Shown here: positions 30,441 through 48,879 of the stretch, piece by piece
How positions within the stretch are numbered: position 1 is the stretch's first letter
How the letters are laid out: every line of letters starts with the position of its first letter
Origin: Candidatus Hydrogenedentota bacterium
GTDB lineage: Bacteria; Hydrogenedentota; Hydrogenedentia; Hydrogenedentales; SLHB01
Length of the DNA: 64,000 nt
Assembly (NCBI GenBank): GCA_963668025.2
Contig: CAXXTH010000010.1
Coordinates: 832,001 to 896,000 of the forward strand
Direction: 5' to 3'
Notes under the pieces: generated by a model
The model's database searches: none
What the model was told of the DNA's origin: nothing
What the model saw: the letters and a program-made list of their open reading frames with translations, nothing else
Position numbers and translations under genes: made by a program

Positions 30441-31247
30441 TTGCTAACGACACGGTTGAGGCAATGGTTCTTGAAGCGTTTCATCGTTATTTCCGAAATA
30501 ATCGGATATGCCTTGTCCGCCGCCGTCGGCTTGGGGATTCTCTATAGCGTATTCGTCGAGGTGGAAATCCTTACGAAAGTCAAAGGGGAGTTGCGGCCCT
30601 CTTGTATGGAAATAAAAGAGGGCGCGGATGCGCTATTCATCGAGTACTTGGCCGCATCCGGTGAGCATGTCGCCAAAGGGCAGCCTATCTTGCGGGTGTC
30701 TGTTGATGATGCCAGCAAGCGAAGCATATTGCTGCGACATCAATTGGAGGAAGCCGTGGCCAGCCTCGAGTCCGATTCGAGCGGCGAGTCGCAAGCGTCG
30801 CTTGAGGATGCGCGGCGCGCATTGGCTGCGTTGCCGCCTGCCGAAGAAAAAGTAGAGACGCTGGCGGCTCCTTGTGGCGGGTTTTTCCAGCCATTGGCAG
30901 GCGTCCGCGAAAACGATGTGGTTCCAGCGGGCAGCGCGCTGGCGCGAGTTTATGACATGTCTGTATTGCGGCTGGATAGTGTTCAGGGCGATGCCCGCAT
31001 CGCGGATGGACAGGAAGCCCGGGCGGTTATTCCTGGCATGCAGGAACGCCTTGTTGGCCAGGTGTCTGTCATCATGGCTCCATCGAACCATGTTTCCATA
31101 TCGTTCCAAGACGCGCCGCAGGCCGCCCGCGAGATTATGTTCGCTTCGTTGTTTGGAAAAAGCGAAGAGAAGCTGGATGCCGTGGAAGCCGAGGTGGTCG
31201 TGGGGCATCAAAGCCTTTTCAAAAAAATGTTCGGGCGCAGGCAATAG
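30441..31247 (+). CDS. HlyD/membrane-fusion-like protein
   Basis: Single N-terminal TM; lipoyl half-motifs GEHVAKGQPILRV and LAAPCGG...VVPAGSALARV flanking a short helical hairpin. Confidence 0.65.
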   Translation: MLTTRLRQWFLKRFIVISEIIGYALSAAVGLGILYSVFVEVEILTKVKGELRPSCMEIKEGADALFIEYLAASGEHVAKGQPILRVSVDDASKRSILLRHQLEEAVASLESDSSGESQASLEDARRALAALPPAEEKVETLAAPCGGFFQPLAGVRENDVVPAGSALARVYDMSVLRLDSVQGDARIADGQEARAVIPGMQERLVGQVSVIMAPSNHVSISFQDAPQAAREIMFASLFGKSEEKLDAVEAEVVVGHQSLFKKMFGRRQ

Positions 31248-31348
31248 CGATGGAATGCGCCTTCATGCGCTGATCTAGTTTCCGCCAGTTTTCTTCGTGA
31301 GTTCCATGAAATGTTTTCCAAACCAGGCATGTTAAGGTGCTTTAGCGC

Positions 31349-31412
31349 AGGTGATTTTGTCCTGGTAATTGGTGACATCTTGCGCGCTTGAATGTAAGAG
31401 CCGCCGTACAAT
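31349..31412 (+). promoter_or_regulatory. Tandem AraC-type site plus -10 box upstream of prepilin gene
   Basis: AGGTGATTTTGT (31349) and TGGTGACATCTT (31370), 21-bp period; TACAAT at 31407; poor -35. Confidence 0.65.
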
Positions 31413-31520
31413 TCATGCCAGGATAGGTTCCATGGCGGCGGTGCGGAGTCTTTTCAAATCTGTTCGTTGCCAAGTATATCAGTGCGGCCATTATAGGTTT
31501 TTTTCAACACAGGAAAGGTG

Positions 31521-32552
31521 ATGAGCGAAATGGTTACTCGGAAAAAGGGTTTCACCCTCATTGAGTTGCTGGTGGTGATTGCGATCATCGCAATTCTTGC
31601 GGCGATTTTGTTGCCCGCGCTGGCCCGGGCGCGCGAGGCGGCCCGCCGTGCGTCGTGCTCCAGCAATCTGAAGCAATTTGGCATTATTTTTAAGATGTAC
31701 AGCAATGAGACGAAGGGCGGCATGTATCCGGGCATGCAAGACTGGCGCATCAACGGCCTCGGCTGGCTGATGGGCTTGCCCGCCGAATCCTTATATCCGG
31801 ATTACTGGAATGATCCAGCCATAGTGGTGTGTCCGTCGGATAGCCATGCGAACGGCGACAAAAATCTAGAAAATGTCACTATCCCGGAGAACGTGTCCGA
31901 TGCCTTGACTGAGGTTAATCAAGGCCTGGCGGCGTCCAAGGCTTGCACGGGCGCGTTATTGGCGCATCCCATGTCGTACATCTATGTGCCTTATGCCGTC
32001 CGCACCGCGACGCAGGTGATACTCGTGGGGGTCACGCAAGCGGGCATGATATTGAAAGCAGGGGTGGAAGCATCCTATACCAAGACAGATTTGGTGAATG
32101 CGGGCTGCCCCTCGACATGGACAAGCGTATACCATTTTAAGGATCCGGAACGGGATATCGAATCGGCTGATATCAAATTGTACATGTGGGGCGGCCTGAC
32201 GTACACGGACGAGGACGAGGAGCCTTGGCCGGCAACGGTGCCCCGTCTCAAGGCTGGGATCGAACGATTCTTTATTACCGACATCAACAATCCCGCAAGC
32301 GCTGCTATGTCGGAGAGCGCCCTATTGGTGATGTTCGACTCGTGGGGCGCATCCCGGTATTGGGGCGGCGCGGGCTACAACGAAGTGCTCGGGTTCAACC
32401 ATTCGCCGGGCGGCGCGAACCTGCTGTTCATGGACGGGCATGTCGAATTTGGCCGATATCCCAGCAAGTGGCTGCCCAAAGGCGACACTACAGCCCCGTT
32501 AATGGCGGGCCAGACCGCGTACAACATGGCTACATGGGGCGGACAAGGCTGA
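31521..32552 (+). CDS. Prepilin-type N-terminal cleavage/methylation protein, DUF1559 / H-X9-DG family
   Basis: [43 protein letters not shown]-terminal [16 protein letters not shown]. Confidence 0.95.
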
Positions 32553-47093: not shown

Positions 47094-47124
47094 GTGTATA
47101 AGAAATATAAATATAGTACTATAA

Positions 47125-47190
47125 CGTCATTCCCGCGAAAGCGGGAATCCAGTGCATTCACCTTGGATCCCCGCTTTCGCGGGGATGACG
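47125..47190. repeat. REP doublet, CGTCATTCCCGCGAAAGCGGGAATCCA family
   Basis: Hairpin 47125-47152 and inverted mate 47164-47190; second doublet at 48951-49012. Confidence 0.85.
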
Positions 47191-47234
47191 TCAGAGTAGT
47201 TAACTGAATAAACGATAAACAAGCGAGGAAAATC

Positions 47235-48879
47235 GTGATGTGTTTCCACAATGCATCTCCACATGACACGGAATTTACCGTTATCGGAATTGTCGGCAAT
47301 CCATCGAGCCCGGAGATCGAATGGTCCGACGAGCAACTGGCGAAGATAAAAGCCCTAGGCGTTAACACGCTTCAGCTCAGTATTGCCTGGGGAGGCAAGC
47401 CCGCCAACGAGGTGCTGAACCTGGAAGACCTGGACGCGGAGCAGCGGGCCACATTTGCATTCCGCATCCAACAAGCAAAAAAGTTCGGATTCCGCACACT
47501 GGCTCATTTTGGCGTGCCGAGGATGTTGAATTACACGCCCGTCCAGCCCGCTTGCATCATGGACCCCGCGGTTCGAGCAAAATATGCGGATCTTCTGGCG
47601 GATTTTTTGAAGACATTCCCCGATGTGCAGGATATTCTGATCTACACATTTGACCAGCAGGCGTGGCTGTGCAGCGAGTATGGGCCGTGCCCGCGCTGCA
47701 GCGGGCTTCCGTTGCACGAACGGCTCCCTGGTTTTCTCGATCATCTGAATGCGGCGATGCAGCAGCAACAGCCTGGCGTCCGGCTCTGGTGGAAACCTTG
47801 GGAATTAACCAAGGGCCAGACCCAGATGGTCGTGCAACAGGTGAATCCAGAACACTTCGGGCTGATGCTGAATCCGTCCACGAGCAATGAGGTGTATCCT
47901 TTCAATGACCGCTCCTTCAAATCCGACCTGGGCGTAAGGCGCTTGGTGAATATGGCCAAGTCGCGTGGCATTCCGGTGGTGGGCGAATTCGACCACACCC
48001 TCTATAAGGGGCTGTATCTGATAGCGGATTTCTTTCCCCGCTTAGTTTACGAGCAGGTGCAAGGCTGGAAAGAGATGGACGGCGTGGTGGGCATCAAGGA
48101 ATACTACGGCTTTGCGCCGTCCCAGTTCTCGGTGAATGCGGCCATGCTCCAGGCGTGCCTGCAATCGCCCGATGCGCCGCTTGAGCAATTGCTTCAGGAG
48201 GTGGCGGCTCCATATGGAGAGAAAGCGGCCTCTCTGATGATTCAGGCATGGGAGCAAGTCGCCCAGGGCGTCGAGGCGTATCCCTGGGACACCACGTATT
48301 TGATCGGCCCCATGGGCCTCGGCCGGCATAACGAGGGCTCGCAACGGATGGGAACCCGCCTCGATCCCCAATGGCACGTGGGATACGCCCATTTGGCAGT
48401 GCAACCGGCGGGCGAATTTCATGCTGACCCAGGAGCATAAAGCCCATCCCTGGCTTTTCGAGGATGCTGGATTGCGCCTCGATGATTCCGCCGCGCTGCA
48501 CTATGAAGCAGTCCATCTCTTCGATGAGGCCATTGCCGCCGGATCAAGCCAGGCGGATGATATCCGCATGCAACGGGAGTTTGTCTGGAACACGGCGCGT
48601 GCGTTGCGGGGAACATCACTGCATTTCCTCGAAACGCTGGCGGCCCAGGATGCGCGAATGGTCCAGCACGATGAACGGCAATGGCTGCTGGTGATCCAGC
48701 GGCTGGACGGCCTGCTGGCAAAGGACGTTGAGAACCAAGGCCATGCCGAATCGGTGGCTGGGAAGCTCGAGGCGTTCCGGAAAGATCCGAAGGCATGGCT
48801 GAGCGCCAACCTCAATCCCCGGACCTATGAATCCATCTGCACCATGGACTGGAGCAAATGGGTGCCGTCGATGAAATGA
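47235..48879 (+). pseudogene. Paralog 2 of the unknown GH-like family, split by one frameshift near 48345
   Basis: Same motifs (GVNTLQLSIAWG, FDQQAWLCSEYGPCPRC, LWWKPWE, GIKEYYG, PWDT). The alternative frame WDTPIWQCNRRANFM matches paralog 1 WHTPSWMSTRRAIFM and joins ORF 48421-48879. Confidence 0.75.

Follow-up and report, generated by a model that had tools for sequence, protein, structure and literature searches.

Which tasks do a prepilin-type protein and a pair of exporter-fold ATP-binding cassette (ABC) half-transporters perform in a locus that also encodes glycan-active enzymes? This question is raised by positions 30441-48879 of the window, which denotes the entire 64,000-nucleotide stretch of a Candidatus Hydrogenedentota bacterium analyzed here (contig CAXXTH010000010.1, positions 832,001 to 896,000). 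The initial annotation of this island had assumed one glycan-utilization system, in which capture of the glycan falls to the pseudopilin and its import, or that of its products, to the ABC heterodimer, alone or together with a membrane fusion protein (MFP), by analogy with the importers YbtPQ and IrtAB. The analysis favors a different reading with a probability of roughly 0.6. According to this reading, the island is a composite AraC regulon for the breakdown of a complex glycan, the ABC and MFP genes are a separate, older cassette that likely serves export, and the pilin helps to capture or retain substrate at the envelope. Within this explanation, support is strongest for the shared operator and for the conserved core.

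The source genome comprises 6.15 Mb in 24 contigs and is 93.75% complete. By open reading frame (ORF) calls and profile scans with Pfam and NCBIfam, twelve genes were found in the island, including every gene named in the initial annotation. The absences it had reported were also reproduced, as no island ORF matched the SusC/SusD, TonB-dependent receptor, solute-binding protein or major facilitator superfamily (MFS) families in these scans. The adjacent SusC-like TonB-dependent transporter and SusD-like lipoprotein that define a SusC/SusD-type polysaccharide utilization locus (PUL) are thus missing from the island ORFs. The genes discussed below are the following, with lengths in amino acids (aa) and GH standing for glycoside hydrolase:

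30441..31247 (+), MFP-like short adaptor, 268 aa, with an N-terminal transmembrane (TM) helix and without upstream operator
31518..32552 (+), pilin, a DUF1559/H-X9-DG prepilin-type protein of 344 aa above the cut-offs of all family models
32711..34755 (+), ARH fusion, an ADP-ribosylglycohydrolase-family (PF03747) protein of about 680 aa without signal peptide, its frame split in the window by five 1-nt insertions
34752..37115 (+), secreted GH95-like glycosidase candidate of the (alpha/alpha)6 type, a 787-aa ORF with its likely start at an inner Met before the signal peptide
37359..38093 (+), secreted surface protein, 244 aa, with a signal peptide and a C-terminal SLPAAG-hydrophobic-RKK tail
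38300..39931 (+), secreted GH32 protein (beta-fructofuranosidase family), N domain E=4e-48, C domain E=1e-13
40124..41959 (-), abcB half-transporter, ABC_membrane and ABC_tran domains, type I exporter fold
42078..43922 (-), abcA half-transporter, ABC_membrane and ABC_tran domains, type I exporter fold
44248..45125 (-), AraC-family regulator with AraC_binding cupin and HTH_18 (window ORF 44280-45026), about 292 aa in the form found in contigs of public runs
45360..47093 (+), PAR1, 577 aa, candidate cytoplasmic glycoside hydrolase by its AlphaFold2 (AF2)/Foldseek fold
47235..48879 (+), PAR2, a PAR1 paralog (35% identity), split in the window at about 48420 from an insertion at 48343

Three of these genes are broken in the window, which carries 1-nt indels at 32827, 33788, 34055, 34274, 34332, 44332 and 48343 and a TAG codon at 45059-45057. 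At these positions, the window deviates from contigs of public sequencing runs to which it is otherwise identical. Run X2 has one base fewer at the first five, runs X2 and X4 have one base fewer at 48343, a contig of run X1 contains an extra C after 44332, and run X2 has C for A at 45059, which changes the in-frame TAG of araC to GAG. These forms open the frames to 679 aa for the ARH fusion, 547 aa for PAR2 and 292 aa for AraC, compared to 679, 546 and 291 aa for the orthologs in G025, one of the 40 relatives of the same family or order that were used for comparison. The frameshifts in these genes are therefore assembly indels, and pseudogenization as their cause was ruled out because the public-run contigs yield whole genes. 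Since these runs may stem from the window's own source sample, the agreement is a technical check and not a biological replication. Further genes of the same assembly may carry similar single-base errors.

The initial annotation had placed a shared operator in front of the prepilin, the surface protein, the ABC pair and the unknown paralogs, and this observation was borne out. The shared pattern TGGTGAT(A/T)T(C/T)(G/A)T(C/G)-N8-(T/C)GGTGA consists of two GGTGA half-sites 21 bp apart, i.e. a direct repeat GGTGAT-N15-GGTGA, and occurs four times:

31349..31376 (+), operator 1, about 170 nt upstream of the prepilin start; ortholog in G025 at L110:1520
37228..37255 (+), operator 2, about 130 nt upstream of the surface-protein start; weaker G025 counterpart with a score of 15.4
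43976..44003 (-), operator 3, about 55-80 nt upstream of abcA; ortholog in G025 at L021:16483
45284..45311 (+), operator 4, in the divergent araC/PAR1 region, about 50-75 nt upstream of PAR1; ortholog in G025 at L021:15365

Matches to the loose pattern GRTGAY-N15-GRTGA start at 31350 (+), 37229 (+), 45285 (+) and 44002 (-), all of them intergenic and oriented towards the downstream gene. On both strands of the 6.15-Mb genome this pattern matches 79 times, so that about 0.2 matches are expected in the 14 kb of the island compared to the four seen. Because the loose pattern was derived from the very sites counted, an independent test was run with a weight matrix built from the three orthologous G025 sites only and scanned over the whole genome. 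The island sites took ranks 1 to 4 genome-wide (26.0, 24.9, 21.6 and 21.6; next 19.8), and this includes the operator of the surface protein, which has no counterpart in the training set. In G025 itself, the operators are kept upstream of the pilin, abcA and PAR1 genes and are weaker upstream of the surface gene. With the same matrix, no operator was found upstream of the MFP, ARH fusion, GH95-like, GH32 and PAR2 genes (best scores at most 5.4).

The simplest reading of these positions is that four transcription units exist, namely pilin-ARH-GH95-like, surface(-GH32), abcA-abcB and PAR1-PAR2, and the MFP gene is not demonstrably part of the regulon. The regulator exceeds the Pfam cut-offs for HTH_18 (44.8 bits, cut-off 33.6) and AraC_binding (36.6 bits, cut-off 21.1), its second HTH half is in frame only in the run-contig form, and it is 88% identical to the 291-aa G025 ortholog. 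This AraC-type activator, with its cupin sensor and helix-turn-helix (HTH) domain, would bind the four two-half-site operators and, when bound, switch on the four units. The second unit would comprise the surface protein and probably GH32, and the PAR1-PAR2 unit would be divergent from araC itself. In silico, the island behaves as the single AraC regulon that had been claimed, with operators conserved in G025. It resembles the E. coli AraC regulon (araBAD, araE, araFGH, araJ) in its cupin-HTH regulator, in direct-repeat half-sites about two helical turns apart, in its dispersed promoters, and in that an efflux-type membrane protein of unclear role (araJ) lies inside a catabolic regulon. In contrast, the operator sequence and the cargo genes differ, an ABC exporter pair takes the place of an MFS protein, and binding is predicted here.

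The same data bear on the possibility of a chance neighborhood. In that case, the ABC pair would be a multidrug-type pump with a housekeeping function, the pilin one among 67 copies scattered over the genome, and the motif without regulatory meaning. The frequency of the parts is in line with this, since pilin genes are abundant (66 PF07596 matches above the cut-off, 67 genes by tblastn, about one per 90 kb) and a genome commonly has several paralogous ABCB-type pairs. A promoter scan also stayed at background (19 seen versus 14.1 expected), as did terminators (18 versus 19.9). However, four oriented intergenic sites occupy the first four ranks with a matrix from another genome, sites and gene order are kept in G025 at about 80% protein identity, and the pilin is orthologous and in fixed order in four genomes. 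A chance neighborhood is therefore highly improbable.

Whether the island is one system or a composite can be judged from the relatives, whose neighborhoods were annotated by calling the longest ORFs and by scanning a limited set of about 60 proteins with Pfam. Orthologs of abcA (39-80% identity, near full length) were found in five of the 40 relatives (G025, G004, G024, G018 and G017), and the other 35 contain only paralogs with 29-36% identity. For abcB, the orthologs are 80% identical in G025 and 40-47% in G004, G024 and G018, and in G017 the gene spans the L028/L029 boundary in pieces of 34% and 53% identity. In four of the five ortholog-bearing relatives (G004, G024, G018 and G017), abcA, abcB and the MFP gene are contiguous on one strand. 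Pilin orthologs above the level of paralogs occur in three of the 40 relatives, with identities of 72% in G025 and 65% in both G015 and G004, compared to 50-54% for the best paralogs in the source genome.

G025 has the layout of the window, distributed over three short contigs. The first contains MFP, pilin, ARH fusion and GH95-like genes, the second the GH95-like C-terminus, the surface protein and a second GH95-like gene, and the third abcB, abcA, AraC, PAR1, PAR2 and a sulfatase. The catabolic cluster has the order AraC, pilin, ARH fusion, PAR1, GH95-like in G004 and AraC, GH32, pilin, ARH fusion, GH95-like in G015; AraC thus adjoins the pilin cluster in both and lies on another contig in G025. 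In G015, which is 94% complete, the cluster is present and the best ABC match is only 33% identical. Conversely, G017, G018 and G024 contain the cassette without an ortholog of the pilin (E<=1e-95), PAR1 (E<=1e-100) or the GH95-like protein (E<=1e-5), and in G004 cassette and cluster lie on different contigs. Only in the window genome and in G025 are the two joined.

This independent occurrence indicates two modules that fused in one lineage. The ancestral core, as judged from gene order, is AraC, pilin, ARH fusion and GH95-like gene, with or without PAR1 and GH32, and is conserved in four genomes including that of the window. GH32 is a lineage-variable extra of the cluster, since its 68% ortholog lies beside AraC and pilin in G015 and none is found in the G025 and G004 clusters. 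Only in the lineage shared by the window genome and G025 would the older, self-contained ABC-ABC-MFP cassette have been broken up and brought under the control of the AraC operator. The DUF1559 prepilin, which keeps a fixed order with the ARH fusion and the GH95-like gene in G025, G015 and G004, is a true member of the catabolic cluster, as had been proposed. The same does not apply to the ABC pair and MFP as an integral glycan-moving part: they form a separate cassette, alone in G017, G018 and G024, unlinked in G004 and without ortholog in G015. The recurrent association with DUF1559 and carbohydrate-active enzyme genes that the initial annotation expected of them was largely absent from the neighborhood survey.

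The identity of the pilin is clear from its family matches. The prepilin cleavage/methylation motif scores 36.4 bits with PF07963 (cut-off 21.2) and 36.3 bits with TIGR02532 (cut-off 16.3), the DUF1559 model PF07596 scores 36.4 bits (cut-off 23.3) with an alignment over profile positions 2-31 only, and the C-terminal H-X9-DG model TIGR04294 scores 24 bits (cut-off 19). An AF2 model from 59 sequences (pLDDT 88.4, pTM 0.86) consists of a 50-residue N-terminal helix and a globular head of about 280 residues, the middle part of which is variable. The island pilin shares with the pseudopilins of type II secretion systems (T2SS; GspG/PulG) and with type IV pilins the class III signal peptide, the G|F site, Glu5 and the long hydrophobic N-terminal helix, and as in those systems the genome provides a prepilin peptidase, GspE-like ATPases and secretins. 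It differs from them in its head of about 280 aa without a solved structural match and in belonging to a hugely expanded family (249,019 cluster representatives with DUF1559 in the protein library at E<=0.001) whose genes lie in catabolic loci instead of secretion operons.

The position of pilin genes within the source genome was compared with randomizations that treat genes as points on contigs. A pilin gene is located no more than 5 kb from nine of the 24 AraC HTH genes (random mean 2.3, maximum 8 in 2000 trials) and no more than 10 kb from 13 of them (mean 4.0, maximum 11). The same distance of 5 kb holds for three of the four other GH32 matches and two of the three other ARH matches, with the remainder at 8.1 and 7.5 kb. 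Importers of classical types are encoded in three paralogous pilin loci. In the first, a Sugar_tr MFS protein adjoins a 71%-identical PAR1 paralog; in the second, SBP_bac_1 and BPD_transp_1 occur with a LacI-like gene beside pilin and GH32; and the third has BPD_transp_2 with an ABC ATPase. This argues that the pilin is no substitute for inner-membrane importers and that its role lies outside the inner membrane.

One such role could be secretion, if the DUF1559 protein were a cargo-specific T2SS pseudopilin and each glycan locus brought its own to secrete its enzymes or its anchored protein. This fits the N-terminus of the pilin, for which the GspG model TIGR01710 is the best match (E=6.7e-11, below the cut-off), and the machinery of the genome, with 16 T2SSE-family matches above the cut-off, seven secretins and one prepilin peptidase. 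It also fits the gene positions, since a pilin gene immediately precedes that of a secreted tail-anchored protein in 19 cases and, in the island, precedes those of secreted enzymes. However, the pilin is followed in each of the four clusters first by the ARH fusion, an enzyme that is cytoplasmic given its lack of a signal peptide, and the head of about 280 aa with its variable middle is twice the size of GspG. Moreover, we know of no precedent for cargo-specific pseudopilins of the major type. Secretion as the purpose of the pilin is therefore unlikely. A GspE-like ATPase and a secretin at G000:C10:939395-943492, which lie on the island's contig about 60 kb further downstream, may be part of a machine that assembles pseudopilins.

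The surface protein, which has a 65% ortholog in G025, belongs to a larger set. Genome-wide, 47 ORFs including this one end in (L/V/I)P-x-x-(G/S/T/A) followed by a hydrophobic stretch of 14-24 residues and a basic cluster, with the consensus (L/V)P(A/V)(A/L)G-TM-basic (e.g. G000 C10:1280070-1281041, C17:1175511-1176905 and C18:389589-390431). For nineteen of these 47, a pilin gene is found less than 1 kb away, at 88-525 nt (random mean 1.8, maximum 7 in 1000 trials), and the ORF is downstream of it in the inspected cases. Among ten pilin-adjacent ORFs that were scanned, six have PASTA domains and three have TSP3 repeats before the tail (four with one just under the cut-off), and the N-terminal parts are variable and mostly without family match. 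A GH95-like enzyme of G025 bears the same kind of tail (L030:100-657).

An LPXTG-type sortase signal was considered for the LPAAG tail and ruled out, because no match to the sortase family PF04203 was found in the 93.75%-complete genome, in which controls matched, and one exosortase gene (207.5 bits) is present. The tail is therefore an exosortase-type signal. None of the NCBIfam sorting-signal models matched the four tails tested at E<=10 except midcut_by_XrtH (E=0.1). As in PEP-CTERM/exosortase sorting, a C-terminal motif, a TM helix and a basic cluster follow one another on 47 secreted proteins in a genome with a single exosortase gene. In place of PEP, these proteins have the motif (L/V)P(A/V)(A/L)G, and the island tail, which reads LPAAG, matches neither the PEP motif nor a PEP-CTERM model.

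Pilins and tail-anchored, variable-headed surface proteins are a recurrent envelope module in this genome. We infer that the pilin acts with the anchored protein in the capture or retention of substrate at the envelope and not in transport across the inner membrane. The pseudopilin would be processed by the single prepilin peptidase of the genome and assembled by one of several machines resembling the T2SS or type IV pili.

For the ABC pair, the direction of transport is the critical question. The two halves are adjacent paralogous genes whose products are 34% identical, and both nucleotide sites of the pair are canonical by sequence. The best solved relatives of abcA are ABCB1/ABCB4/ABCB11, TM288 (E=3.9e-77), BmrD (YheH, E=1.4e-73), Sav1866 and MsbA. 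Among the 60 best solved relatives listed there is no importer, and neither YbtPQ nor IrtAB is among them. These two are exporter-fold ABC transporters that import siderophores. In principle they belong to the same general fold class, but the island pair has no siderophore-interaction domain, and unlike the relatives of the pair, YbtPQ and IrtAB have no MFP partner.

The MFP scores below the NCBIfam cut-offs (TIGR01843 17.1 bits, E=0.0021, cut-off 208.65; TIGR01730 14 versus 94.9; TIGR02971 14.2 versus 129) and has no Pfam match. Its neighbors in the protein atlas are short HlyD/barrel-sandwich adaptors (score 0.97). Judged by atlas and synteny, it is weakly HlyD-like and would work like a short adaptor without being assigned to the HlyD family. 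A predicted complex of the MFP with the two ABC transmembrane domains reached a score of 0.01 compared to the mark of 0.32, which speaks neither for nor against an interaction. MFP partners are known from export systems of the HlyD, MacA and LcnD families. Like TM287/288, BmrCD, MacAB, HlyBD, LcnC/LcnD and ComAB, the system has two ABC_membrane and ABC_tran halves and, in the relatives, a conserved adjacent MFP-like gene. It deviates from ABC-plus-MFP exporters in that the MFP has only 268 aa and fails the HlyD, RND and DevB cut-offs, a C39 peptidase domain is lacking, the MFP gene is on the opposite strand at a distance of 9 kb, and the operator of a sugar regulator precedes the pair.

Because the cassette is separate from the catabolic cluster, export by the ABC pair is more likely than glycan import and is the most likely direction on present sequence evidence. 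The pair would export a by-product linked to catabolism, an aglycone or surplus sugar, and the glycan importer would be encoded elsewhere.

Several observations weigh against this reading, and three of them speak for the import model of the initial annotation at the same time. First, the ABC pair carries its own copy of the shared operator, which is conserved in G025, so it belongs to the regulon here. Second, neither the island nor the G004 cluster contains another transporter, and three cytoplasmic enzymes (PAR1, PAR2 and the ARH fusion) are encoded in the island. Third, a secreted gene that looks glycan-active is found near the cassette in all four relatives, adjacent in three and about 5 kb away in G004. 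These neighbors are a GH3-PKD protein in G024, a GH129-like protein 5 kb off in G004 and giant beta-helix/DUF1565/BACON proteins in G017 and G018; the counts have no base rate and the genomes of the relatives are rich in such secreted genes. A glycan-related role of the cassette itself is possible in view of these neighbors. Furthermore, the MFP may no longer serve the pair, since its gene has no operator and it has diverged fast, with 48-49% identity between window and G025 compared to 65-88% for the other island proteins.

Other points concern the regulon and the pilin. The relatives compared are kin and not independent samples. No convincing operator was found in the G004 and G015 clusters (best scores 12.8 and 12.1), where AraC is only 43-47% identical. 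The co-induction of the four units is predicted from DNA motifs only, and the binding of AraC to the operators is predicted from motif statistics and conservation. The pilin head has no recognizable carbohydrate-binding fold, as a fold search of the model against the PDB yielded no chain at E<=0.001 and its best matches covered the helix of type IV pilins only. A sequence search with the head likewise reached no more than the N-terminal helix. With no solved match for the head, structure neither supports nor opposes glycan binding.

Nevertheless, import by the pair is rather improbable. Cassette and cluster occur without each other (the former alone in G017, G018 and G024, the latter alone in G015) and are unlinked in G004, a conserved MFP partner is the mark of export systems, none of the 60 best solved relatives listed is an importer, and the paralogous pilin loci use MFS or binding-protein ABC importers instead. 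Among the 80 loci of the PAR family surveyed below, none has the MFP and one has the orthologous pair, which is the G025 contig. The import model retains a small share of the probability because the pair is part of the regulon and no other transporter exists in the island or the G004 cluster. A composite regulon with a recruited export cassette is still preferred. An unknown secreted family also flanks the cassette, on both sides in G004 (L023:162-2441 and L023:7047-9308; 753 and 759 aa) and upstream in G017 (L028:14297-17044; 915 aa). Its members are 26-30% identical over about 420 aa, with no Pfam or PDB match and no homolog in the window genome, and they give no hint of what the cassette transports.

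The enzymes provide hints on the target glycan. The ADP-ribosylglycohydrolase-family gene of the initial annotation is present, although it is not a stand-alone gene but one fusion of about 680 aa. PF03747 matches the window piece 32928-33830 with E=9e-31 and 108 bits and the intact ortholog L055:7971-9941 with 141.4 bits over the full domain. Intact orthologs of the fusion have 679, 656 and 674 aa, and Pfam detects the ARH domain alone, in the first approximately 290 of 656 residues. A 168-aa ORF that could be taken for a separate unknown gene was rejected as such, as it is the C-terminal part of this fusion.

For the GH95-like protein, no Pfam match was found at E<=0.01. Weak PDB matches are the GH95 structure 4ufc (E=0.017 by sequence, E=0.0045 by a 7-sequence profile) and the DUF5703 protein 9hyq (E=0.001 by the profile), and its protein-atlas neighbors (score 0.97) are clusters with Glyco_hydro_95_cat in 72-99% of members. 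The GH32 protein exceeds the cut-offs with both its N-terminal beta-propeller (164.9 bits) and its C-terminal beta-sandwich (52.1 bits).

PAR1 and PAR2 had been described as unknown paralogs. Two paralogs are indeed present, but a glycosidase-like fold of a TIM barrel and a helical bundle could be assigned. Neither has a Pfam, NCBIfam or PDB sequence match. The AF2 model of PAR1 from a 32-sequence alignment (pLDDT 88.5, pTM 0.90) contains a (beta/alpha)8 barrel at about residues 30-345, followed by the helical bundle. With Foldseek it matched GH138 (6hze; E=1.3e-11, TMq 0.55-0.60) as well as GH67 alpha-glucuronidases, GH84 O-GlcNAcases and GH20 hexosaminidases. These matches share the two-part architecture at 9-14% identity, which by sequence places PAR1 outside GH138, GH67, GH84 and GH20. 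The family comprises more than 1000 homologs without any Pfam domain, from metagenome-assembled genomes and isolates labeled as at least 15 phyla, and has a nearly invariant WLCSEFGPCPRC cysteine cluster; one homolog (P0108) bears a Bac_rhamnosid_N domain. Further paralogs in the source genome are located at G000:C10:1077006-1078667 and, as four distant tandem copies, at G000:C22:62472-73227. Judging from the model, PAR looks like an undescribed glycoside hydrolase family.

A survey of 80 fetched PAR loci by tblastn with the island proteins, in which three loci are contigs already counted among the relatives, gave these counts:

AraC-like match, 8 of 80 loci
GH95-like match, 7 of 80
ABC fragments or pairs, 6 of 80, with the orthologous pair only in L030, the G025 contig itself
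Pilins, 5 of 80
ARH, 4 of 80
GH32, 1 of 80
MFP, 0 of 80

In addition, 856 neighboring ORFs were clustered and labeled by one Pfam-scanned representative per cluster, with the AraC-like label taken from tblastn. The recurrent neighbors were:

AraC-like regulator, 11 loci
Sulfatase, 9 loci
GH78 rhamnosidases, 8 loci and 3 in a second cluster
Arabinose/fucose-isomerase-like protein, 8 loci
GH106 rhamnosidases, 5 loci

The recurrence of GH78 and GH106 rhamnosidases and of sulfatases hints at a rhamnose-containing, possibly sulfated target glycan rather than plain fructan. Signal peptides and folds suggest a site of action in the cell envelope for GH32 and the GH95-like enzyme as well as for the DUF1559 pseudopilin and the anchored protein of the exosortase type. 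PAR1, PAR2 and the ARH fusion, which have no signal peptides, would finish imported oligosaccharides in the cytoplasm.

This arrangement is reminiscent of Bacteroidota SusC/SusD PULs, in which one sugar-responsive regulator also controls surface glycan-binding proteins, secreted and intracellular glycosidases, and transport. Homologs of PAR1, PAR2 and the GH95-like protein even occur together in Paludibacter/Bacteroidales loci (L086, L087, L089 and L101), where the GH95-like protein bears a type IX secretion system tail. Unlike these PULs, the island has no SusC/SusD or TonB-dependent receptor, and its envelope parts are the DUF1559 pseudopilin and the exosortase-type anchored protein. A more far-reaching proposal is that DUF1559 pseudopilins and exosortase-anchored, variable-headed proteins form a substrate-specific, envelope-spanning apparatus for glycan capture and hand-over, as the counterpart of SusC/SusD in Hydrogenedentota and the Planctomycetota-Verrucomicrobiota-Chlamydiota (PVC) bacteria, with the ABC pair co-opted as importer and PAR finishing the work in the cytoplasm. 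It is very doubtful that this applies.

Several features lie beside or between the genes discussed. A 515-aa ORF at 28690-30237 (-), divergent from the MFP gene, has no Pfam or NCBIfam match; its 31%-identical paralog at G000:C10:98693-99988 in the same genome adjoins an AraC gene (HTH at C10:100076-100312). Two genes for SpoIIE-type phosphatases, one of them with Cache/HAMP sensor domains, and a gene for a family 4 glycosyltransferase (GT4) of 831 aa with a long N-terminal extension border the island; none of them has an evident link to it:

25733-27712 (+), SpoIIE-type phosphatase
51728-52873 (-), SpoIIE-type phosphatase
49199-51694 (+), GT4 glycosyltransferase

Palindromic repeats resembling repetitive extragenic palindromes (REP) lie in intergenic gaps at 38148-38172, 42009-42033 and 44211-44235, at 47117-47198 and 48934-49012, and at 39940-40106, some of them inside the putative operons surface/GH32, abcA/abcB and PAR1/PAR2. 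Among them, the 25-nt hairpin CCGTGGCATGGGCGTCCCGCCCATG is present in identical copies at two places. Deletion variants suggested by read-contig joints (e.g. 38173 to 39940 and 38198 to 42011) were rejected as repeat artifacts, as their sides of 21-26 letters fall on these repeats. The bin 47059-47675 has a very high summed contig depth of up to 1555 in all four public runs compared.

Previous work touches on parts of this picture. In Rhodopirellula baltica, 74 DUF1559 genes with stress-dependent expression were reported and the domain was called a new solute-binding family (PMC2754498), and one DUF1559 gene is common to two plasmids (PMC5352709). The passages of these two papers that were consulted do not mention a role of DUF1559 in glycan use. 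During fucoidan breakdown in Planctomycetota, a T2SS is up-regulated (PMC11685898), and the terms pilin, pili, pseudopilin and prepilin do not occur in the main text of that article, the part consulted. No published description of pilin-containing glycan loci was found, although papers using other names may exist.

DUF1559 is one of the largest protein families without known function, with 67 copies in the window genome alone. With one predicted regulator, a defined operator, one conserved pilin, one anchored protein and few enzymes, the island is a compact and testable case that could tell whether such pilins serve glycan capture or enzyme secretion. The PAR family adds a glycosidase-like fold with more than 1000 homologs over many phyla, adjoining rhamnosidases and sulfatases. 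Finally, the recruitment of a conserved cassette of two ABC genes and a short MFP gene to a sugar regulon raises the question of what a catabolic regulon must export.

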